Of a stretch of 12,645 bases of DNA, positions 1 through 12,645 are shown one piece after another; within the stretch, counting starts at the first letter, position 1, and every line of letters starts with the position of its first letter. Location: the IMG/VR virus record IMGVR_UViG_2778261591_000019; one strand, given 5' to 3'. Under the pieces are notes generated by a model, which saw nothing but the letters and a program-made list of their open reading frames with translations, did no database searches and was not told the origin of the DNA. Source of the DNA: a virus (Duplodnaviria; Heunggongvirae; Uroviricota; Caudoviricetes). The position numbers were made by a program, and so were the translations under genes.

Positions 1-276
1 CTGGCGAAGGATATCGTTACTGCGGCGCAGTTCACGATTTTCACGTTCCAGCTCTTTCAGACGCTGACGTTCAGCGCTGGTGAGCCCACCATCACCGCCC
101 CCGGTATCCCGCTCATGCTGGCGAACCCAGACACGCAGAGTCTCCGGCGTACAGCCAATCTTTGGGGCAATGGAACAAATTGCCGCCCACTGTGAGTCAT
201 ATTCATCCTGACTTTCCAGAACCATACGAATCGCCCGCTGACGGACTTCGGGGGAAAAACGAGTATTTTTAGTCAT
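1..276 (-). CDS. IS3-family transposase OrfA (HTH/leucine-zipper subunit), N-terminal 92 codons; 3' end lies outside the window
   Basis: ATG at 276-274 (minus strand); exactly 92 in-frame codons to position 1 with no stop; sequence ends ...[20 protein letters not shown], typical of IS3/IS629 OrfA. Confidence 0.85.
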
Positions 277-330
277 CCTGTTTACCTCTTTCTCAGGGAG
301 TTTAGTCTCCAGGATTTCCGGGGCGGTTCA
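1..330 (-). mobile_element. IS3-family insertion sequence (IS629/IS1203/IS3411-like), terminal 330 bp; element continues beyond the left edge of the window
   Basis: Minus-strand OrfA translation [23 protein letters not shown]... is recognisably IS3-family OrfA (recalled, not searched). The element ends ...GGCGGTTCA at 330, matching the TG...CA termini of IS3-family inverted repeats, with about 54 bp between the terminus and the OrfA ATG. Confidence 0.8.
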
Positions 331-1743
331 GACGAATATGACAGTCTGTTACGGGAAGTGCCTGAAAAAATAAAGGCGAAATATGACGAAAGTGTGGCAA
401 ATCTGAAAGCACGTTATGAGAGCAATGGTGAAGTTGTTCCTCAGGGTAAACTCGATTCATTAATGCGAAAGTACGAAAAGGAATTACGGAAAGAACAGTC
501 CAGACTTTCAAAATCAAGAGCAAATGATCTCAGAGACATAACAGCATTACGCGATCGTCTTGTTGGTACATATGGTATGCCTGATGATCCGTCTTCGTTT
601 TTTGTTCGTGCTGGCGCTTTTCTGCGGGATGTGAACTTCACGACCAAACTCGGTGGAATGACAGTATCAGCTATTCCAGATCTGGCCAGAGGGGTTATGG
701 TTAATGGTTTCCGTAACACCATGAAAGGCTATGCTTCTCAGATATCCCAATCACCGGCATTTAAGGCCAGCAAAGAAGAGATGTTGAAGATGGGGATTGG
801 ATTGGAAGCTGTACTACATTCACGTTCTCGTGCAATTGGTGATCTTGTTGACAGTTCTTCCAGGACAACAGCAGTCGAAGCAGGAATGGAGCGAATTACT
901 GATGCCTTCGGCAAGCTGACACTCATGGATCGATTTAATGACATAAACAAATCCATGAACGGAATGCTCACGTCAGACGGTATTTTGTCTGGTGCGTTTT
1001 CTGCACGTCGCATGGCAAAACTCGGTATCAACGACAATATGGCTGCGCGTATTCGCAGTGAGTTCGAGAAACATGGTGAGGTAATTGATGGATGGCACAT
1101 TGGTAACTTTGATAAATGGGACGATCAGTACGTTGCCGGAGTATTCCAGTCAGCGGTTCTGAAAGACGTTAATAACACTATCATCACCCCCGGTATTGGT
1201 GACACACCTTTATGGGCGAGTACTCCAATGGGGCGAACGATATTTCAGTTTAAATCATTCACAACGGCTTCATACAACCGTGCGCTACTTGGTGGGTTAC
1301 AGGAAGGAACTGCGCAATTTTATTATGGCACTGTATTTCAGATTGCTCTTGGCTCACTGGTCTATGCGCTAAAAGAAGCATCGAAAGGGAAAAATGTTGA
1401 CTGGTCACCAGAGAAGCTGGTGCTTGAGGGTATAGATAGATCCGGTATTCTTGGGCCATTGATGGAATATAACAACATGGCTGAAAAGGCTACTGGTGGT
1501 GCTGTTGGGCTGGGGGCTTTATTTGGCACTGGCACACAGTCTAGGTATGCCAGTCGTGGATTCGTAGGATCTCTATTCGGACCGTCATTTGGTCTTGCGG
1601 ATAGCATCATTGATGTGACCGCAGGAGTGTTGAATGGTGATGCCGGTGATCGTATTGTGCATAATGTCCGAACCCTGATACCAGGCAATAACCTGTTCTG
1701 GATTGCGCCACTAATAAACCAGGTGGATCCGGTGATGCGGTGA
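331..1743 (+). pseudogene. 3' portion (about 470 codons) of a phage virion/DNA-ejection-type protein gene, 5' end removed by the IS insertion
   Basis: The reading frame is open from the IS boundary (331: D E Y D S L L R E V...) to the stop at 1741-1743, with no credible start codon or RBS near the 5' end. Position just upstream of a P22-type immI module, and a Gly-rich C-terminal region, are consistent with a gp16-like ejection protein, but family assignment is unverified. Confidence 0.6.
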
Positions 1744-1754
1744 GTTAAACGCCT

Positions 1755-2345
1755 TTAGCATGATTCAGGGGAAACCCCAATATTAAATATGAGTGACTCT
1801 CCTGAATCAGCATAATAATGTAATATTATTGACTTACGTTGTTTTCTTGCTTCGTAGAATAAACGCTCTTGCGGCGATAATTTGTGAAAACTGCCGGATG
1901 CACAATATATGTTTTTTAACTTTTCGCTGGTTGCTTTTATTGTATCTTCTGAGATGTATTTTAGGTATTTATCCGTATAGATGTTGCTACTATAAGAAAT
2001 TAATGTTTTGCTGTTGTTGTGATGTATTGTATTTTTATCGTTGAAGTCTGTATTTTTATTTACTGTCATTAGGTTTTTAATGATTACATGTAATGCAATA
2101 GTCTCCCCATCATCAATTCCATATTTGATGTCATAGTCAGTATATTTATTTGTTATACCGCTTCCTGATAGCGGCACTATGTACTCTGAGAAAAATGAGT
2201 TTGCCGCGTGACCATCAAGAGCAATAGCAGTTTTTTTGTGGTAAAAATAAAACAATATTGAGAGAGTCAAAATAATAGCGACGCCTAATGCAACCTTTAA
2301 TATAGATATGGTTTTCAAAATATCGCTCCTTGTTGTAACATACAT
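1755..2345 (-). CDS. Hypothetical single-pass membrane protein in an AT-rich island; candidate superinfection-exclusion-type moron
   Basis: About 200-codon ORF in visibly AT-rich DNA, where long ORFs are unlikely by chance. Predicted N-terminal TM helix (ISILKVALGVAIILTLSILFYFY) followed by an N/K/Y/S-rich soluble domain. Start ambiguous (ATG 2345 or TTG 2366), no clear SD. Sits where sieA lies in P22-like phages. Confidence 0.5.
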   Translation of the reverse strand: MYVTTRSDILKTISILKVALGVAIILTLSILFYFYHKKTAIALDGHAANSFFSEYIVPLSGSGITNKYTDYDIKYGIDDGETIALHVIIKNLMTVNKNTDFNDKNTIHHNNSKTLISYSSNIYTDKYLKYISEDTIKATSEKLKNIYCASGSFHKLSPQERLFYEARKQRKSIILHYYADSGESLIFNIGVSPESC

Positions 2346-2378
2346 CAGTAATGTGGCGTTTTTCAATTGTATTAAAGA

Positions 2379-2408
2379 CGTGTAATATGTACACGCCTTT
2401 TGTTCTTC
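2379..2408 (-). terminator. Weak hairpin plus T-rich tract between the mnt-like gene and the membrane-protein gene
   Basis: CGTGTA-ATATG-TACACG stem-loop (2379-2395) flanked by T-rich sequence; only a 6-bp stem. Confidence 0.25.
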
Positions 2409-2840
2409 CTATTCAGGTATTTCAATTCCAAAACCATCTGCATCCCATGAGTTTTCACAGATGATGTAACCTAGTTCATTGAGCTTATTAAATGTTTTTT
2501 CAAAGATGATCTGGTAATCATTATCTGCAAGTGATTCCAGTTCAAGGTCATTAAGGTTTATATAAAAACTTGTATGTCCAAGTGTTATTTTCTTATTGAT
2601 TTCATTAAAAGTTCTTTTGAAAATAATATTTGATATTTCATGCCGTGCATTGTTTGCAATAATTTTTGCTTCATAAGCAGAAATTACGTCATCTTCATGA
2701 ATATCTTTCAGAAAGCTGGTGTCAAGACGTTGTACTATTTCAGCGTTCATTGAGCGCTTATTGGCTTTTGCAGAAATTTCTATTTTTTCTTTTACTTCAA
2801 CGGGAAGTCTGATCCTTAGTTGTGGATCTTCTCTGCTCAT
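2409..2840 (-). CDS. mnt: Mnt-like ribbon-helix-helix repressor with an extra C-terminal domain of about 60 aa
   Basis: N-terminus MSREDPQLRIRLPVEVKEKIEISAKANKRSMNAEIVQRL matches the P22 Mnt RHH motif (DP..F..R.P.EV.EK....A.AN.RSMN.E..Q). ATG at 2840 preceded by a GGTGA SD. Divergent from the arc-like/ant genes as in P22 immI. 143 aa versus 83 aa for P22 Mnt. Confidence 0.75.
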   Translation of the reverse strand: MSREDPQLRIRLPVEVKEKIEISAKANKRSMNAEIVQRLDTSFLKDIHEDDVISAYEAKIIANNARHEISNIIFKRTFNEINKKITLGHTSFYINLNDLELESLADNDYQIIFEKTFNKLNELGYIICENSWDADGFGIEIPE

Positions 2841-2870
2841 GTTCTTCACCAAATATTGAGTTACTTGCAA

Positions 2871-3200: not shown

Positions 3201-4145
3201 ATGACGAGTATAGCAACAGCGCTATCTACTATCAACGTGCCATTCCACGGCGCAGAACTTTATGTTGTCAATCACAACGGAGAACCGTACACCCCAATGA
3301 AACCTATCGTTGAAGGCATGGGTATGGATTGGGCTTCACAGTTTACGAAAATGAAGCAGCGGTTTAAAACCTGCATTGTGAAAATCACAATGCAGCTTCC
3401 TGGGGATGAACAGCGCCGTGAGATTATTTGTTTGGCACTTCGCAAACTTGCTGGCTGGTTGCAAACCATCAGCCCTAACAAAGTCCGCCCTGAAATCCGC
3501 GACAAGGTAATCCAGTATCAGGAAGAGTGTGACGATGTTCTCTACGAGTACTGGACTAAAGGCCATGTGGTTAACCCACGCAAAGCTAAAAAGGCGTTGC
3601 CGGGTAAAATAACCACTGAACAGCAGGAAGCCATTAAACAACTCGTCATGAGTCGCGGTCAGTCTCTGCCAAAAGAAAAACAGGCTAAGGCGATGATCAC
3701 CATGTGGTCGTCACTGAAATCTCATTTTGGCTGTTCGTACAAAGAAATTGATGAAGATCAATTCGCCGAAGCGTTGTCTCTTGTTGCTCGGGTTCCGCTT
3801 GAAGGGGAGCATCTCCCTGCTGGATCTGCATCAGAGAATGATGAAGTGGCAGTCAAGATGTTAGATGCGCTTCGTGAGGCAATTAAAACACAGACAAAAT
3901 GTTATGGTTATCCGCTGAAGCCCGGCTACCGCAGTCTGATTCATTCGCCGTCTGGTGTTCTCGGCCTGACGGAGAACTCACTGCTGATGAATCTGCTTAA
4001 CCAGTTACAGGACGACGGGCACGATGTATCGGGCGCGGCGGCGGAGCTGACCACCATGTTCTGCTACATCGTCGGTGTGAGCAAGTGCCTGCGTGATATC
4101 CAGACCCACGCGGAGTACATCAACGACAAGGCAGGGTTCTTCTGA
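3201..4145 (+). CDS. ant: Phage antirepressor (Ant); N-terminal AntA-type domain plus a C-terminal module shared with two other genes in the window
   Basis: 314-aa ORF directly after arc in the immI arrangement, with ATG 3201 and AGGA upstream. N-terminus VPFHGAELYVVNHNGEPYTPMKPIVEGMGMDW resembles antirepressor N-domains. C-terminal 77 aa are near-identical to the C-terminus of the 5121-5813 gene. Confidence 0.75.
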   Translation: MTSIATALSTINVPFHGAELYVVNHNGEPYTPMKPIVEGMGMDWASQFTKMKQRFKTCIVKITMQLPGDEQRREIICLALRKLAGWLQTISPNKVRPEIRDKVIQYQEECDDVLYEYWTKGHVVNPRKAKKALPGKITTEQQEAIKQLVMSRGQSLPKEKQAKAMITMWSSLKSHFGCSYKEIDEDQFAEALSLVARVPLEGEHLPAGSASENDEVAVKMLDALREAIKTQTKCYGYPLKPGYRSLIHSPSGVLGLTENSLLMNLLNQLQDDGHDVSGAAAELTTMFCYIVGVSKCLRDIQTHAEYINDKAGFF

Positions 4146-4169
4146 CAGAACGGCGGCACAGGGATGTGC
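3915..4169. repeat. Inverted repeat, left copy (3' end of ant plus about 24 bp downstream)
   Basis: Reverse complement of 5099-5353 matches 3915-4169 at about 95% identity by hand alignment (about 12 mismatches over 231 coding bp); similarity continues past the stop codons (CGGCGGCACAGGGATGTGC). Confidence 0.85.
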
Positions 4170-4281: not shown

Positions 4282-4827
4282 TTATTCCTTCCATTTATCA
4301 GAAAAAAGATCTTCTTCTAAAGGCATTGGTTCTGTTTTTGTTTTCTCAAAGAATTGATAACTGATAGTGATTGCTTCCTCTTTAAACTCTTCTTGCTCAG
4401 TTATGTTGTGGGCATCTGCGTCAACAAAAAACATAACCAGCGCATCACGATTGTGATTTACCGAATAAACTAAAAAGCAATCACTTGTTGGTATGCATTT
4501 TACTTGCACAGACGCTATATTTTTCCATGCATCCCAAGATGATTTTTTACCAGTGTGTTTTTTATCACTATCTTCTGGAATATAGTCTTGGTTATCGACA
4601 TGAGTATGCCTGACATTTAGTTTAAGCATTTCTGTCGGACGAGCAAATGCAGCATCTTTACCAAGAGATGGATGGTATCCCGTTTTCCAATACTGGGTAA
4701 AGGCATCAGATACTTTCTTCAGCTCAAGATCAGATGCACAAAGGGCCGAGAAATTTTGCGTATGCAATACTCGACCCTTATATCTGACAATTTGATTTTT
4801 ATCATTCTGCGACGCAGACGAACTCAT
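4282..4827 (-). CDS. YafO-like toxin candidate (181 aa)
   Basis: ATG 4827 with AAGGA SD. By-eye similarity to E. coli YafO as I recall it: GKDAAF..P..LKLNVRHTHV versus GRDALY..P..IKFERVAHIHL, and FLVYSV...ALVMFFVDADAH versus HLVYCQ...WLLIAILKPEPH. The YafO sequence is from memory and unverified. Confidence 0.55.
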   Translation of the reverse strand: MSSSASQNDKNQIVRYKGRVLHTQNFSALCASDLELKKVSDAFTQYWKTGYHPSLGKDAAFARPTEMLKLNVRHTHVDNQDYIPEDSDKKHTGKKSSWDAWKNIASVQVKCIPTSDCFLVYSVNHNRDALVMFFVDADAHNITEQEEFKEEAITISYQFFEKTKTEPMPLEEDLFSDKWKE

Positions 4828-4981
4828 AATTTTCCTTATTGTTACGAGAATCAAAGAAAGCTCGGGATACGCGACTTGCGTGATCTTTTGTCATAGTAAC
4901 TTTTACGTACTCTACGCTTCCATTGAAAGAACGTCTTGCGGCAGCTTGCGCTCTACGCATCTGCAATTTTTCGTTTCGCAT
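4802..4981 (-). CDS. Small basic ORF (59 aa) overlapping the start of the toxin-like gene; candidate cognate antitoxin/regulator
   Basis: Not in the supplied ORF track (below size cutoff). ATG 4981 preceded by GAGG SD; stop TGA at 4804-4802 overlaps the downstream gene start by 26 nt. Promoter-like -35 TTGGTT (complement of 5031-5036), 17-nt spacer, -10 TGTAAT (complement of 5008-5013). Product MRNEKLQMRRAQAAARRSFNGSVEYVKVTMTKDHASRVSRAFFDSRNNKENYEFVCVAE. Confidence 0.35.
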   Translation of the reverse strand: MRNEKLQMRRAQAAARRSFNGSVEYVKVTMTKDHASRVSRAFFDSRNNKENYEFVCVAE

Positions 4982-5098: not shown

Positions 5099-5353
5099 GC
5101 ACATCCCTGTGCGCCGCCCGTCAGAAGAACCCTGCTTTGTCGTTGATATACTCCGCGTGAGTCTGGATATCACGCAGGCATTTGCTCACACCAACGATGT
5201 AGCAGAACATGGTGGTCAGCTCCGCCGCCGCGCCAGATACGTCGTGCCCGTCTTCCTGTAACTGGTTCAGCAGATTCATCAGCAGTGAGTTCTCCGTCAG
5301 GCCGAGAACACCAGACGGAGAATGAATCAGGCTGCGGTATCCGGGCTTCAGTG
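5099..5353. repeat. Inverted repeat, right copy (3' end of the second antirepressor gene plus flanking bases)
   Basis: See left copy; the two copies encode nearly identical C-terminal peptides KPGYRSLIHSPSGVLGLTENSLLMNLLNQLQ(D/E)DGHDVSGAAAELTTMFCYIVGVSKCLRDIQTHAEYINDKAGFF on opposite strands. Confidence 0.85.
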
Positions 5354-5813
5354 GGGCGCTGTAGGTTTTGTTCTCTATCTTCATTGCCTGCATTACTGCT
5401 GACGCCGTGGCGTTGGCTACCTGGTCGGCAACCATCTTTATGCGTTCTTCCTGCGGGAGCGAGTTTTTAATGTAACTTCCAGTGCGGCGGATCTGAGGAA
5501 GAACCTCACCTGTAACCCATTCAAGAAATCTGAATGCTCTCGTTCCCTCTGTCATTGCCTCTTTGCAACGCAGAATAAGGATGTAGAGACCTGATTCTGA
5601 AACGATGGATAGTTCTTGTATTCCACCAGGGGTCTGTATTGAATACAGCCCCTTTTTGTTCCAGCCTTTTTTATCAAGTTTTCTCGCTTGTGTAACATCA
5701 ATATTCAAAGCATTGCACACATCTTTGGTGACAAACCAAGGTTCTCCGTCAATCATGAACATACGGATCTGGCAGGATGACTCAAAGGAAAAGATGGAAG
5801 GTTTGGTATTCAT
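5121..5813 (-). CDS. Second antirepressor: Bro-N-type N-terminal domain plus the shared antirepressor C-terminal module (230 aa)
   Basis: ATG 5813 with AGGTG SD. N-terminus IRMFMIDGEPWFVTKDVCNALNI...SESGLYILILRCKEAMTEGTRAFRFLEWVTGEVLPQIRR has classic Bro-N/antirepressor motifs. C-terminus as in ant. Confidence 0.8.
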   Translation of the reverse strand: MNTKPSIFSFESSCQIRMFMIDGEPWFVTKDVCNALNIDVTQARKLDKKGWNKKGLYSIQTPGGIQELSIVSESGLYILILRCKEAMTEGTRAFRFLEWVTGEVLPQIRRTGSYIKNSLPQEERIKMVADQVANATASAVMQAMKIENKTYSAPLKPGYRSLIHSPSGVLGLTENSLLMNLLNQLQEDGHDVSGAAAELTTMFCYIVGVSKCLRDIQTHAEYINDKAGFF

Positions 5814-6208: not shown

Positions 6209-6937
6209 ATGGAAGTTTTCTGGATAGTTGTTGGTGTGGTTGCGGTGATTATTTATGTCCTTCACCAGAACAAGACTAAGATCTCTGATCGCACGGTCGT
6301 TAATCATAACAAAACGATAAAGACCGAAGATGGGGAGATAACGATTAATCGTACACAGGTGATAGAACACACCTCTACTCAGTTTCAAAAAACTGGAGGT
6401 AATGCGCCTAATATTTCCGCACCTCCTGCTTATGATAGTGAGGTAATCCAGACATATTATAAACAGCAGGAGTTAGCAAAAGAGAGGCAACTGATTCAGC
6501 CAAAGCCATTTACAGCAGAGCTTCCACCTGGAGTGTCAACGCGTCCGGCATATCATGGAAGATTCCCTGGTGATGACATATCGTCTCAGTCACCTAAAAA
6601 AGCACCTCAGGCAGTATCAGAGTCAGCAAGAATACCTTCTGTATCGCCGTCAAAAGAAGAATCAGCTAACAGAGTTTCAAGTGGCCGCAAGCAGTGTTTG
6701 CGATGCAGAATAAACCTTCCATATGAAAAATTCCGGAAATCGTCAAAAAATCCAGATGGATTGACTAAGTGGTGTGCAAGGTGTCTCGATGGCCCAAAGA
6801 ATACACGTCATATGAAGTGGTGCCCAATTTGTAATGTCCGCAGAAAACGAACCAGCTTTTATCCTAATAATCAAAATGCGGATGGTTTAATGGCATGGTG
6901 CAAAACGTGCTGGGACGAGCACAAAGCGAAACGATAG
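6209..6937 (+). CDS. Membrane-tethered protein with two tandem C-x2-C-x22-C-x2-C zinc-ribbon motifs (242 aa); function unknown
   Basis: ATG 6209 with GAGG SD. N-terminal TM helix (VFWIVVGVVAVIIYVL), S/P/Q-rich linker, then CLRC-x22-CARC and CPIC-x22-CKTC, each with a conserved P...N.DGL..WC core. Confidence 0.7.
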   Translation: MEVFWIVVGVVAVIIYVLHQNKTKISDRTVVNHNKTIKTEDGEITINRTQVIEHTSTQFQKTGGNAPNISAPPAYDSEVIQTYYKQQELAKERQLIQPKPFTAELPPGVSTRPAYHGRFPGDDISSQSPKKAPQAVSESARIPSVSPSKEESANRVSSGRKQCLRCRINLPYEKFRKSSKNPDGLTKWCARCLDGPKNTRHMKWCPICNVRRKRTSFYPNNQNADGLMAWCKTCWDEHKAKR

Positions 6938-6960
6938 GCCGCTCTTGCGGCCTTTTCTTT
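6937..6960 (+). terminator. Rho-independent terminator after the zinc-ribbon gene (possibly bidirectional)
   Basis: GGCCGC-TCTT-GCGGCC hairpin (6937-6952) plus TTTTCTTT; same stem sequence as the ant terminator at 4197-4212. Confidence 0.6.
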
Positions 6961-7216
6961 ATGTAGTTTGTTTTCGTAATTGTTCGGCACAATAGTCGAG
7001 ATGTGTTTGCAGATCCTGCATAGACATCTGTGAGCTGGTGACGTAGTTAATCAGTGCAGTCAGTTCGGCAAGTGGGCCATCGACATTAAATCCATCCTTA
7101 TCGAGATCCCGGAGTAATTTCATCAAGTGCGATCCCTCCACCAGTGACCTGACGCCTCCCGGCGTGTGAATCCTTTCGGTAAATCCCTCTTCCAGTGGAT
7201 AGTGATACTGCTGCAT
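6959..7216 (-). CDS. Stand-alone antirepressor C-terminal-module protein (85 aa)
   Basis: ATG 7216 with GGAG SD. IHTPGGVRSLVEGSHLMKLLRDLDKDGFNVDGPLAELTALINYV...DLQTHLDY aligns with IHSPSGVLGLTENSLLMNLLNQLQDDGHDVSGAAAELTTMFCYI...DIQTHAEY of both antirepressors, about 45% identity by eye. Confidence 0.7.
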   Translation of the reverse strand: MQQYHYPLEEGFTERIHTPGGVRSLVEGSHLMKLLRDLDKDGFNVDGPLAELTALINYVTSSQMSMQDLQTHLDYCAEQLRKQTT

Positions 7217-7411: not shown

Positions 7412-9406
7412 ATGACGGTCTCAACCGAAGTTGACCACAACGAATATACAGGTAACGGTGTTACAACTACGTTCCCTTATACCTTTAGGATTTTCCAGAA
7501 ATCTGATCTGGTGGTGCAGGTGATTGACCTTGACGAGAATATCACTGTGCTGGCTCTTGATACTGATTACGCAGTCACTGGTGCGGGAGGCTATAGCGGC
7601 GGTAATATAATACTGTCGAAGGCATTGGCCAACGGTTATCAGATCTCTATATCACGAGAGCTCCCGGTTACTCAGGAAACAGATCTGCGTAATCAGGGTA
7701 AATTCTTTGCAGAGGTGCATGAGGATGCGTTTGATAAGCTAACGATGCTGATTCAACAATGTCGTAGCTTGTTTCGTCTTGCACTTTGCAAACCATCAAG
7801 TATTGCAAACTGGTACGACGCTTTAAATAACAGGATTAGAAATCTTAAAGATCCAGAAAGCCCTCAGGATGCAGTAACTTTAAGTTATCTTGAAGGGTAT
7901 ATAGAAGGTGGTGATAGTACTTTGCGTCCAGATATTACAAGAACTGGAGCTGTAGGGAATAATATACAGCAAGCCATAAACTTATCTATAGCCGGTCAAA
8001 CTGTAATTACGATGAAAGATGATGAAATTGTATCTTCATTGTTAAATGAATATGGTGTTGAAATTGAGCAACGCAGGGGGCGTGTATTTAATACAGAAGG
8101 TGTTCAACTAACAACGTATTCTGACCCTCGTTCCCGTTTTGTAACTGGTGACCAATATCTTAATTATGTTATTAGCAAGATGATAAAAGCAGATGGCGTG
8201 GATAAATCACAGAAAACATATATTTTGTGGTCTGGTGACTCCACGATTGTTGGTGTTAACTCTGAATTATGGCCACCAGCAACTATTGCTGATTTTTATG
8301 CAAAAAGGTATGGAATTATTGATGTAAAAAATACATCGTTAGGTCATTCAGGTAAAACTCTATACGAATGGGGTAATTGGTATATTGATCAGGAATGGTC
8401 TGTTTTTTCTGCTGCTGATTTGATTGTTTTACGATGGGGAATTAACGATCCATATTATGGTTATACATTGGATCAAGTAAAAGACGCATTAGATAGAGGT
8501 CTTTCCAAGTTACGAAATAACAAATCAGTTTCCCAGCAATCAATTATTATCATGTCCCCAAACTCAACATCAGACACACCAAACGGACGTGATGAAAAAT
8601 GGTATGAACAGTTAACAGCCGTACTTAGAGCCAAAGCAAAACAATATAAGTGTATGTTTTTTGATACTTACGGTATGTGGCAGGATTCGCGAGGATCTGC
8701 TGGTAACTGGCTTGACGACCCTTATGGCGATGGCAGGGGAATACACCCAAACTCAACATTTAGCGCACAGATACATAAATTATTATTTGAATATATTTAT
8801 GGACCGTGTGCTGTTATAAATGGGAGTAGCAACCTTTTTTCTAACAATGGTTCTTCCATACAATTCATCAATAGCTCATATCCGCCAAATACTTTTCACA
8901 TGGGGACTTCATGGTGGAGAACAAACCCTGATGATGCTTCTTGGCCTCTTGACGGTGTTATTCAGGTTGATAGATTTGTTGACGGAATAGTAGTACAAAA
9001 AAATTATGGTTATTCTTCAGATAATGCTCGCGTTTGCTTAATGAGGATTGGAAGGATTAGTGAGAATACATGGAGTACATGGCGAGGTAATCAGTATGAT
9101 ATGAGTGGCATATTGCAAAATGGTTGGTCTGTAGGTGAGGCAAGAAGTGGAACATATCAGAAATCAGCCGAGGGCGTTGTTACTTTATCTGCTGTTTTAA
9201 CAGGTGGAAATACATCTGTTGGCACAGTTATTATGGTATTGCCAGAAGGGTTTAGACCAAAGAATGATATTTCTTATATTCCATCAGGTACTGATTCATC
9301 GGTTGCCCTCATTAATATACTTTCAAACGGTAAAGTTACAATTCAGAGCTATCCGTCAGGAACAGTTCTTGTAATTAATACGACATTCCCTTCATTAGTT
9401 AATTAG
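7412..9406 (+). CDS. Tailspike/tail fibre with conserved N-terminal particle-binding domain, central SGNH (GDSL-type) esterase domain and C-terminal beta-rich receptor-binding region (664 aa)
   Basis: ATG 7412 with GGAG SD. SGNH blocks: WSGDST (G275-D276-S277), LGHSGKT, WGINDP, GRGIHPN. N-terminal about 120 aa (NEYTGNGVTTTFPYTF...DTDYAVTG) resembles tail-fibre/tailspike anchor domains. Size and domain order fit an O-antigen-deacetylating tailspike. Confidence 0.8.
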   Translation: MTVSTEVDHNEYTGNGVTTTFPYTFRIFQKSDLVVQVIDLDENITVLALDTDYAVTGAGGYSGGNIILSKALANGYQISISRELPVTQETDLRNQGKFFAEVHEDAFDKLTMLIQQCRSLFRLALCKPSSIANWYDALNNRIRNLKDPESPQDAVTLSYLEGYIEGGDSTLRPDITRTGAVGNNIQQAINLSIAGQTVITMKDDEIVSSLLNEYGVEIEQRRGRVFNTEGVQLTTYSDPRSRFVTGDQYLNYVISKMIKADGVDKSQKTYILWSGDSTIVGVNSELWPPATIADFYAKRYGIIDVKNTSLGHSGKTLYEWGNWYIDQEWSVFSAADLIVLRWGINDPYYGYTLDQVKDALDRGLSKLRNNKSVSQQSIIIMSPNSTSDTPNGRDEKWYEQLTAVLRAKAKQYKCMFFDTYGMWQDSRGSAGNWLDDPYGDGRGIHPNSTFSAQIHKLLFEYIYGPCAVINGSSNLFSNNGSSIQFINSSYPPNTFHMGTSWWRTNPDDASWPLDGVIQVDRFVDGIVVQKNYGYSSDNARVCLMRIGRISENTWSTWRGNQYDMSGILQNGWSVGEARSGTYQKSAEGVVTLSAVLTGGNTSVGTVIMVLPEGFRPKNDISYIPSGTDSSVALINILSNGKVTIQSYPSGTVLVINTTFPSLVN

Positions 9407-11574: not shown

Positions 11575-12114
11575 TTAATTAAACCAGCTGTCCGATTTGT
11601 TCTCTTCTGCTTTGCCCACGCTTTTCATCAGATCGCGACCGCCTTCAGTCATATTTCTGTTGGCGTCAGCTTCAGATTGCACCACATCGGTTTGCGCAGC
11701 TTTGTGCTTCAGTTCCTGATCGATAAATTCGTTTTCTCGCTTAACGCGGGCTTCTTCTTTCGCCAGCGCCAGTTTTTGTTTCTGAATCTCTAAGCTGCGT
11801 AGCTCATCTTCATAACTTTGATCGCGTTTTTTGTCCGCAGAGGCTTCGGCGTCCAGTTTATCCTGACGAGCTTTCTTATTTGCTGCTGCCGTTGCCGCTC
11901 TTTTGTTAGCGGCGGCCTGGGCATTTGCGCGACGTTGCTTCTCTTGCTGGATTTCCCTGTTGCGCTCCGCGACCCATTCGTCATGCTGCCTTTGCTCTTC
12001 ATTTTTACCTTGCTGTTCAGCTTCTGCTACAGCAGAGAGTTGATCCTGCAATGATGAGGCGATAGCCGGATAGCTTAAGGAGGCCAAGATGGCGCAAAGA
12101 AAAACTTTCTTCAT
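11575..12114 (-). CDS. Secreted coiled-coil protein (signal peptide; Ala/Lys/Glu/Gln-rich), 179 aa
   Basis: ATG 12114 with strong AGGAGG SD. Signal peptide MKKVFLCAILASLSYPAIA; remainder strongly helical/charged. No family recognised. Confidence 0.6.
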   Translation of the reverse strand: MKKVFLCAILASLSYPAIASSLQDQLSAVAEAEQQGKNEEQRQHDEWVAERNREIQQEKQRRANAQAAANKRAATAAANKKARQDKLDAEASADKKRDQSYEDELRSLEIQKQKLALAKEEARVKRENEFIDQELKHKAAQTDVVQSEADANRNMTEGGRDLMKSVGKAEENKSDSWFN

Positions 12115-12129
12115 GACTCCTCCTGATTA

Positions 12130-12645
12130 TTAGCTCTTTTCAGGACATTTAGTATTTGGCTGAATACGCGTTTCGTTATACGTTGTGGTAATAACAACGG
12201 CTAAACCTGTCGTAAACTGGCACTCTTTACCCACCTGGGTAGAGGTATACACTTTGGTGCCTTCCTTATATGTTAAAGAAACACCTTCCACTAAGGTTTT
12301 ATCATTCACCATAGAACCCGCTGCCGCGCCTACAGCTCCGCCGCCAACTGCCCCTGCCGTCGTTCCGGAATTGCTGCCAGAACCGACGTTGTGGCCGATA
12401 ACACCGCCAGCGACTGCGCCAATAAGCGCGCCGAAGGCTTGTGCGTTCCGTTTATTTTGGGAGTTGTCTACGGCAACTTTTGCGGGAAGAATGGAAATAA
12501 TATTAACGGTTTTAGTTTCTTGTTTGGTATTCAGTTGATCGGTTTGATAAACATCGGCGGCATGATCGTCAGCATTTGACTGGCATCCTGCCAGAGTGAA
12601 TGACGCTAACATTGCCACAGGCAGAAGACATTTTTTAAATTTCAT
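12130..12645 (-). CDS. Outer-membrane lipoprotein with glycine-zipper domain (YcfJ/SlyB/Pcp-like, 17-kDa-antigen family), 171 aa
   Basis: Lipobox LAGC after a signal peptide. GALIGAVAGGVIGHNVGSG...GAVGGGAVGAAAG closely resembles the YcfJ/SlyB glycine-zipper core (from memory). ATG at the window edge (12645). Confidence 0.7.
   Translation of the reverse strand: MKFKKCLLPVAMLASFTLAGCQSNADDHAADVYQTDQLNTKQETKTVNIISILPAKVAVDNSQNKRNAQAFGALIGAVAGGVIGHNVGSGSNSGTTAGAVGGGAVGAAAGSMVNDKTLVEGVSLTYKEGTKVYTSTQVGKECQFTTGLAVVITTTYNETRIQPNTKCPEKS

Follow-up and report, generated by a model that had tools for sequence, protein, structure and literature searches.

An insertion sequence of the IS629/IS1203 type has very likely transposed into a T7-gp16-type ejection gene of an Escherichia coli prophage, entering after codon 534 of 1004 and separating the two halves of the gene, with a probably non-infectious prophage as the outcome. 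The window analyzed here, a stretch of 12,645 nucleotides catalogued as viral DNA (IMG/VR record IMGVR_UViG_2778261591_000019), opens inside the insertion sequence and continues through the distal half of the gene, the right arm of the prophage and the adjoining host genes (Table 1). The reading frame that directly follows the element is the remnant of a 1004-codon gene split by IS629/IS1203, and we discuss below the origin of the break, the identity of the lost product, and the expected consequences for the phage.

Table 1. Features of the window, with strand and supporting evidence
Feature	Position	Strand	Evidence or remark
IS629/IS1203 (IS3 family), left, IRL-proximal 330 bases	1..330	-	330/330 identity to annotated IS1203 copies
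IS629 OrfA, first 92 codons, helix-turn-helix transposase N-terminal protein	1..276	-	ATG at 276-274; Pfam PF01527 HTH_Tnp_1, E=1.4e-12; gene call on NJUJ01000007.1
IS terminal inverted repeat IRL, imperfect	306..330		Minus-strand reading TGAACCGCCCCGGAAATCCTGGAGA; identified by comparing both ends of the full PV15-279 copy
GAC, predicted copy of the 3-bp target-site duplication	331..333	+	By likeness to the CTT duplication at the PV15-279 copy; only this copy lies in the window
3' fragment of T7-gp16-type internal virion/ejection protein gene, codons 535-1004 plus stop	331..1743	+	99.6% amino acid identity to the TL-2011b gp38 C-terminus
461-codon gene-caller ORF from GTG358	358..1743	+	Truncation artefact; start codon is internal Val-544 in intact relatives
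Right arm of the prophage, apparently intact	1755..11355		Gene calls, Pfam, PHROGs; collinear at 93-99% with 13E0780, TL-2011b and UTAK-1
Host genes yfgI and yfgH (yfgH cut by the window end)	11575..12645	-	Collinear annotation in 13E0780 and UTAK-1

Results

An IS629/IS1203 Terminus at Base 330

The first 330 bases of the window are identical, base for base, to copies that thousands of E. coli records annotate as "IS3-like element IS1203 family transposase" (330/330, E=1e-171), and they coincide exactly with the final 330 bases of a full-length 1310-bp copy in E. coli O157:H7 PV15-279, which sits within espY2 and has the 3-bp duplication CTT on both sides. The element ends in ...GGGGCGGTTCA, with GGTTCA as its final letters, and the single end visible in the window agrees with the TG...CA termini usual for IS629/IS1203. 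Placement of the terminus at base 330 follows from the full identity to known copies, from the terminal inverted repeat that closes there, and from a fall in GC content across the junction, from 54% in the element to 42-46% in the phage gene; the IS3-family assignment and the terminus proposed in a first-pass annotation of the sequence are thus both borne out, with the element now specified as IS629/IS1203.

IS3-family elements encode OrfA, a helix-turn-helix protein, followed by OrfB with its DDE/rve domain, the latter reached through a programmed -1 frameshift. In the present copy the transposase points away from the phage gene and only the beginning of OrfA is at hand: the window starts at the second base of NJUJ01000007.1 (NCBI GCA_002459835.1, 154,766 bp), a draft contig that itself begins within the element, and the remainder of the 1310-bp IS, including OrfB and the frameshift site that are both present in the reference copy, lies beyond the window and the contig alike.

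The Element Breaks a 1004-Codon Gene

Positions 331-1743 form an ungapped alignment with the 3'-terminal 1413 nt of a 1004-codon gene (3015 nt) that is intact in TL-2011b, E. coli 13E0780 and UTAK-1, from which they differ at 3, 3 and 7 nucleotides, respectively, and the fragment contains neither a frameshift nor an internal stop. The break falls after codon 534: the intact proteins read ...RLQLIE and continue directly into DEYDSLL..., whereas in the window DEYDSLL... is preceded by the IS. A large virion gene deprived of its 5' part had been proposed from the sequence before any database was consulted, and the comparison with the three intact relatives now puts the loss at 534 of 1004 codons; BLASTP with the 470-aa fragment, suggested at the same time, leads to the C-terminus of TL-2011b gp38 at the identity listed in Table 1.

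The site was further surveyed by megablast with window positions 1-2400 as the query against a database of 5426 complete E. coli genomes. Thirty-six of these carry the segment 331-2400 at 99.2-99.8% identity, in each case with the match starting at base 330 or 331 of the query, and the IS is absent from this site in all 36.

The Far Side of the Element

We infer that the missing 5' part of the gene continues beyond the 1310-bp element. The first-pass annotation had stated that it must lie there, which is firmer than a contig that starts inside the IS can support; for the same reason the suggested extension to the left ends at the contig boundary. Under a simple insertion, the 5' fragment would end in ...ATT GAG GAC and then run into a TGA of the IS to give a 535-aa product, with a predicted left junction in which ...CAATTAATTGAGGAC is directly followed by TGAACCGCCCCGGGTTTCC (also given as ...CAATTAATTGAGGAC followed by TGAACCGCCCCGGGTTTCCTGGAG). 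Three guessed alleles of this product, each ending in D535, were not found by exact look-up in the protein collection, and a homology search seeded with the first 535 residues of the protein yielded no sequence more than 88% identical; both junction patterns were without a match in viral contigs, as was the IS-gene junction in metagenome contigs. A 22-mer of the predicted left junction does occur in one MAG contig, where blastn detects neither IS629 nor the phage gene, and it was rejected as a chance match. On the right-hand side, exact look-up of the 461-aa product in a collection of 15 billion proteins leads to a single contig, NJUJ01000007.1, reported in 2 samples.

These results bear on a different origin for the same junction, namely an IS629-bounded deletion or rearrangement, whether through deletion next to the element or through recombination of one IS629 copy with another, in which the 5' half, with or without more of the prophage, was lost or moved and the DNA to the left of the IS would be unrelated. 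A contig that ends inside the IS places no constraint on what lies beyond, such strains carry many copies of IS629 (as many as 51 places in one genome), and the 535-aa product was missed with all three allele guesses. We nevertheless consider such an event unlikely, given that the look-ups relied on guessed alleles for which one residue of difference is enough to miss, that simple insertion is the commonest IS629 polymorphism in prophages (PMC4587872), and that the right arm is perfectly collinear with its intact relatives. Whether the junction arose by simple insertion or by such a deletion or rearrangement, the gene is inactivated.

The Right End of a TL-2011b-Like Prophage

Collinearity with known prophages identifies the window as the right-hand part of an E. 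coli podovirus prophage that is TL-2011b-like (Uetakevirus-type) and occupies the guaA-yfgI locus. Its best match is UTAK-1, which covers 91% of the window at 98.3% identity; the UTAK-1 and 13E0780 prophages are both located between guaA and yfgI, and in the window yfgI and yfgH adjoin the Rz gene, at the right-hand boundary between prophage and chromosome. The left arm, with the main repressor, the integrase and the head genes, lies outside the window, as does the guaA flank.

Downstream of the interrupted gene, the right arm encodes a 187-aa hypothetical protein, an Arc-family regulator, a small Arc-like protein, Ant, and a YafO-family toxin with a small upstream ORF, followed by a Bro-N protein, a 242-aa and an 85-aa ORF, an SGNH-esterase tailspike, two holins, a GH19 endolysin and Rz. 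Every gene from 1755 to 11355 matches its counterpart in the intact relatives in length, and the earlier description of the accessory and lysis genes as intact therefore stands for the right arm present in the window.

Among named phages the nearest is Escherichia phage TL-2011b, an infectious phage: obtained by induction of the O103:H25 strain from the Norwegian outbreak, it infects O103:H25 by spot assay (PMC4315091) and has been referred to as a Uetakevirus (PMC11522302). The window prophage resembles it in the near identity of the fragment to gp38 (YP_007001989.1), in the order of the downstream genes, and in the right chromosomal flank; it differs in that TL-2011b retains an intact gene of its own (1004 aa) and in that the window prophage has another tailspike body, an SGNH esterase as in UTAK-1, and is without the O-acetyltransferase gene.

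The Interrupted Gene Encodes a T7 gp16 Homologue

Searched against PHROGs, residues 24-1002 of the full 1004-aa protein match phrog_342 (E=1.4e-209), a family labeled "internal virion protein with endolysin domain," and the window fragment alone does so with E=6.5e-107; T7 gp16 is itself in this family (1354.7 bits). The match begins at profile position 203, past the endolysin part, and an N-terminal lytic transglycosylase domain is absent from the 1004-aa protein, an SLT domain being found in the preceding 905-aa protein instead. This combination points to a split-architecture variant for which homology to gp16 holds for the body and C-terminus only. Alignment of a 42-sequence family alignment to T7 gp16 with hhalign gave a probability of 97.8% (E=1.2e-12) over 620 columns, pairing residues 274-965 with T7 gp16 residues 514-1261; the C-terminal half stranded in the window corresponds to roughly residues 820-1261 of the T7 protein.

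Gene order in TL-2011b, 13E0780 and UTAK-1 is consistent with this assignment. There, tail protein and tail tube genes are followed by a pair of genes for small internal virion proteins, assigned to phrog_308 and phrog_418 and sharing 63-65% identity with gp13 and gp14 of epsilon15, by that of the 905-aa SLT protein, and by the 1004-codon gene, which closes the structural operon and is the last and largest of a gp14-like/gp15-like/gp16-like cluster, as read from the relatives, the upstream genes being outside the window. Together, the phrog_342 match, the hhalign result and the gene order identify the interrupted gene as a homologue of T7 gp16, with the transglycosylase domain encoded by its neighbor, and on sequence grounds we assign the TL-2011b gp38 family to the internal virion/ejection proteins of the gp16 type. 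The ejection or structural role that the first-pass annotation had suggested from the position of the gene is thereby given a specific identity.

Further searches place the family among large virion proteins. Its profile matches three PDB chains of 1239-1337 residues (E=9.5e-8 to 2.8e-4), of which 9sfn_G is named "Internal virion protein," 23sg_S only gp10, and 9vvp_L only Gp29; a direct phmmer search of PDB sequences with the full protein gave no match. An exhaustive phmmer search with the 470-aa fragment retrieved 4256 cluster representatives at E<=0.001, and for nearly all of the best 150 of these the matched region forms the extreme C-terminus of a protein of 900-2000 aa. A few homologues of approximately 430-510 aa appear among the matches listed and may be contig-end fragments or free-standing C-terminal genes. 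Pfam, NCBIfam and PADLOC gave no significant match to the 1004-aa protein, and a Tox-REase-2 domain was rejected at 16.7 bits against a cut-off of 27.6. AlphaFold2 modeling of the 470-aa fragment from a 20-sequence alignment yielded a mean pLDDT of 46. The Kyte-Doolittle profile of the fragment (19-residue window) peaks at 1.2, below a confident transmembrane call, and features glycine-rich, moderately hydrophobic stretches at fragment residues ~326-350 and ~409-435, the first of which aligns near T7 gp16 residues 1140-1165.

T7 gp16 is packaged in the head and expelled at adsorption, and it forms the inner portion of the channel through which DNA is ejected across the cell envelope. With gp15 it forms a tunnel that reaches and crosses the inner membrane, and its C-terminal region has putative transmembrane helices and last residues that are needed for infectivity (PMC8954989). 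The C-terminal region discussed in that work is the part stranded in the window. The TL-2011b-type protein shares with T7 gp16 membership of phrog_342, a profile match that extends nearly to the C-terminus, and the terminal position in the gp14/gp15/gp16-like cluster, whereas identity is only ~18% and the N-terminal transglycosylase is absent; the T7 mechanism would carry over by analogy.

A counterpoint is offered by epsilon15, a related Salmonella phage and the type Uetakevirus, whose proteins in this slot are of a different kind: its gp16 and gp17 occupy the same operon position, after gp13, gp14 and the SLT protein gp15, but are unrelated to the 1004-aa protein (BLASTP best E=0.04). From these comparisons the distal ejection module appears swapped between epsilon15 and the TL-2011b-like phages.

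Discussion

Expected Loss of Infectivity

The insertion would cut the conserved C-terminal half off from the promoter, the ribosome binding site and the N-terminal half, and with these parts separated no full-length protein would be possible. After induction, excision, replication, head and tail assembly and cell lysis might all still proceed, and the resulting particles, devoid of the inner part of the ejection channel, would be expected to fail in DNA delivery. Since ejection proteins are required for podovirus infectivity (PMC8954989), a defective prophage can reasonably be expected, and by homology the predicted loss of infectivity is well founded. Rescue would be conceivable through a co-resident phage that provides a compatible gp16-type protein in trans, and the defect could be complemented in this way by another related prophage, should this genome carry one. 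The 1.3-kb insertion may also exert polarity on any late transcript running on towards the tailspike and lysis genes.

A Probably Recent Event

The age of the event matters for how the prophage is viewed. The element is identical to other copies of IS629/IS1203 and the fragment is undecayed, at 3 nt in 1413 from the gene of an infectious phage, so that the event looks very recent; likewise, the occurrence of the insertion in 0 of 5426 complete genomes and of the product on one contig among 15 billion proteins is a recent, strain-private signature. We infer that the IS hit is recent. The first-pass annotation had gone further and described a domesticated prophage retained for its cargo, and this part of it finds no support: nothing points to selection for retention. 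Long-standing defectiveness with selection for toxin-antitoxin genes, Ant/Bro regulators and lysis or exclusion genes is compatible with inactivation by the IS, and the full length of all right-arm genes and the presence of a YafO-family toxin and other accessory genes would suit it, yet intact neighbors are what one recent hit leaves by default, and an IS without divergence next to an orphan fragment without frameshift or stop lacks the signs of age. We therefore hold domestication to be improbable.

Integrity of the Junction and of the Reading Frame

Very improbable, in our assessment, is an assembly artefact or a sub-population, in which a chimeric join or a minority of cells would account for the junction and the main population would have an intact gene. 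The assembly is a draft whose contig ends in a repeat, and the exact product is confined to a single contig in the 15-billion-protein collection; the switch from IS to gene, however, coincides exactly with the terminal base of the inverted repeat, as in true transposition and unlike a random chimera, and the contig is reported in 2 samples.

The start signals of the fragment speak to whether 331-1743 could be a complete and functional ORF, initiated at GTG358 or an internal ATG, in an unimpaired prophage. The frame remains open for 45 codons back into the IS, as far as a stop at 193-195, and from there on contains no ATG, GTG or TTG upstream of GTG358. This first candidate is directly abutted by GGGAA, which with no spacing is unusable as a Shine-Dalgarno sequence, and no sigma-70 or promoter-like site was found on the plus strand within 1-1743. 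The first-pass annotation had reported a fragment without start codon or ribosome binding site and had named a functional start with such a site as the finding that would speak against truncation; the search described here found none, nor any promoter on which the fragment could rely. Given the missing earlier start, the unusable ribosome binding site, the missing promoter-like site, and the internal position of the valine codon in the relatives, the 461-aa ORF is best regarded as a truncation artefact. That a gene caller nonetheless begins an ORF at GTG358 and that a handful of family members have only 430-510 aa does little to make a complete gene credible, as these codons lie well inside a gene of 1004 codons in all close relatives, most listed homologues carry the region at the end of a 900-2000-aa protein, and homology stops exactly at the IS terminus.

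Equally hard to credit is a scenario in which the orphan C-terminal half is expressed, for instance by read-through from the IS or the late operon, and acts in the lysogen as a dominant-negative or decoy against ejectosome assembly by incoming related podoviruses; if true, the IS would have made a superinfection-exclusion factor out of a virion gene, and the prophage, though disabled, would be retained on that account.

Relation to Known IS629 Insertions and Implications for Annotation

The phage family, the insertion sequence, and the splitting of prophage ORFs by IS629 are all already known. What the present analysis adds is modest, namely that the TL-2011b gp38 family, so far annotated only as hypothetical and without a Pfam or NCBIfam model, belongs with T7 gp16. 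For annotation, the 461-aa "hypothetical protein" that opens NJUJ01000007.1 would accordingly be recorded as the 3' remnant of a putative ejection gene and not as a gene, and the TL-2011b-like prophage of this strain is probably unable to spread alone.

In Shiga toxin-producing E. coli, Stx2a phages that are otherwise identical vary mainly in how many IS629 copies they carry and where these sit (PMC4587872). The case described here shares with these phages the element and the splitting of a phage ORF, and differs from them in its target, a podovirus ejection gene of a TL-2011b-like prophage as opposed to a lambdoid Stx phage; it is one further instance, of local importance only, of IS629 inactivating an E. 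coli prophage gene.

Ejection Module Comparison Within the Genus Uetakevirus

As judged from protein comparisons, the distal ejection module has been exchanged within the genus Uetakevirus, with one version of the epsilon15 type and another of the TL-2011b type. We compared positions 14669-19329 of epsilon15 (L008) with the intact TL-2011b-type gene (L004, 32239-35253): the gp13 and gp14 homologues share 63-65% identity, the match between the TL-2011b-type SLT protein and epsilon15 gp15 is limited to the first 250 residues, and the 1004-aa T7-gp16-like protein shows no BLASTP similarity to either gp16 or gp17 of epsilon15. For the N-terminal 535 residues, the predicted 5′ product of the split ejection-protein gene, a word-indexed protein search returned no match above 88% identity, although near-identical E. 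coli proteins do exist in RefSeq, such as WP_001145705.1 from strain UTAK-1; close relatives were seemingly absent from that search or hidden in it.

IS insertions are not rare in the TL-2011b-like prophage family, since the corresponding right arms of two related E. coli prophages, H35 (NZ_AP045810.1) and H39 (NZ_CP074866.1), carry IS66-family (ISEc23, ISEc8) and IS3-family transposase genes.

Accessory Genes and Tailspike

Directly 3′ of the ejection-protein gene lies an island (window 1755-2850) with a GC content of 30-35%. It occupies the position at which sieA/mnt/arc/ant are found in P22, which makes the 187-aa hypothetical protein encoded there a candidate for an exclusion or moron function expressed in the lysogen; Pfam and PADLOC searches with this protein gave no match.

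Features of the prophage right arm (window coordinates)
Feature	Position	Strand	Remarks
187-aa conserved hypothetical	1755-2318	minus	phrog_8033
143-aa Arc-family protein	2409-2840	minus	within low-GC island
YafO-family toxin gene (181 aa) and overlapping upstream 59-aa ORF	4282-4981	minus	59-aa ORF: phrog_6685
242-aa ORF	6209-6937	plus	phrog_6762
85-aa free-standing ORF	6959-7216		same C-terminal module as ant/Bro-N (phrog_450/15539)
Tailspike	7412-9406	plus	conserved 160-aa N-terminal anchor and SGNH/GDSL esterase body

The YafO-family gene and its 59-aa partner, a pair also present in TL-2011b, likely constitute a prophage-borne toxin-antitoxin system. The 3′ ends of ant, on the plus strand, and of the Bro-N gene, on the minus strand, form a 270-nt inverted repeat, 90% complementary, with arms at 3877-4146 and 5120-5389. 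This repeat might favour inversion of the intervening YafO segment.

The 242-aa ORF has an endonuclease VII/HNH/Lar-like zinc-finger stretch at its C-terminus; neither the UTAK-1 nor the 13E0780 prophage contains this ORF, and its TL-2011b counterpart is marked only as a misc_feature, "similar to hypothetical protein". The esterase body of the tailspike is shared with UTAK-1, whereas TL-2011b carries an O103-type spike; unlike the window, both TL-2011b and 13E0780 have an O-acetyltransferase gene between tailspike and holin.
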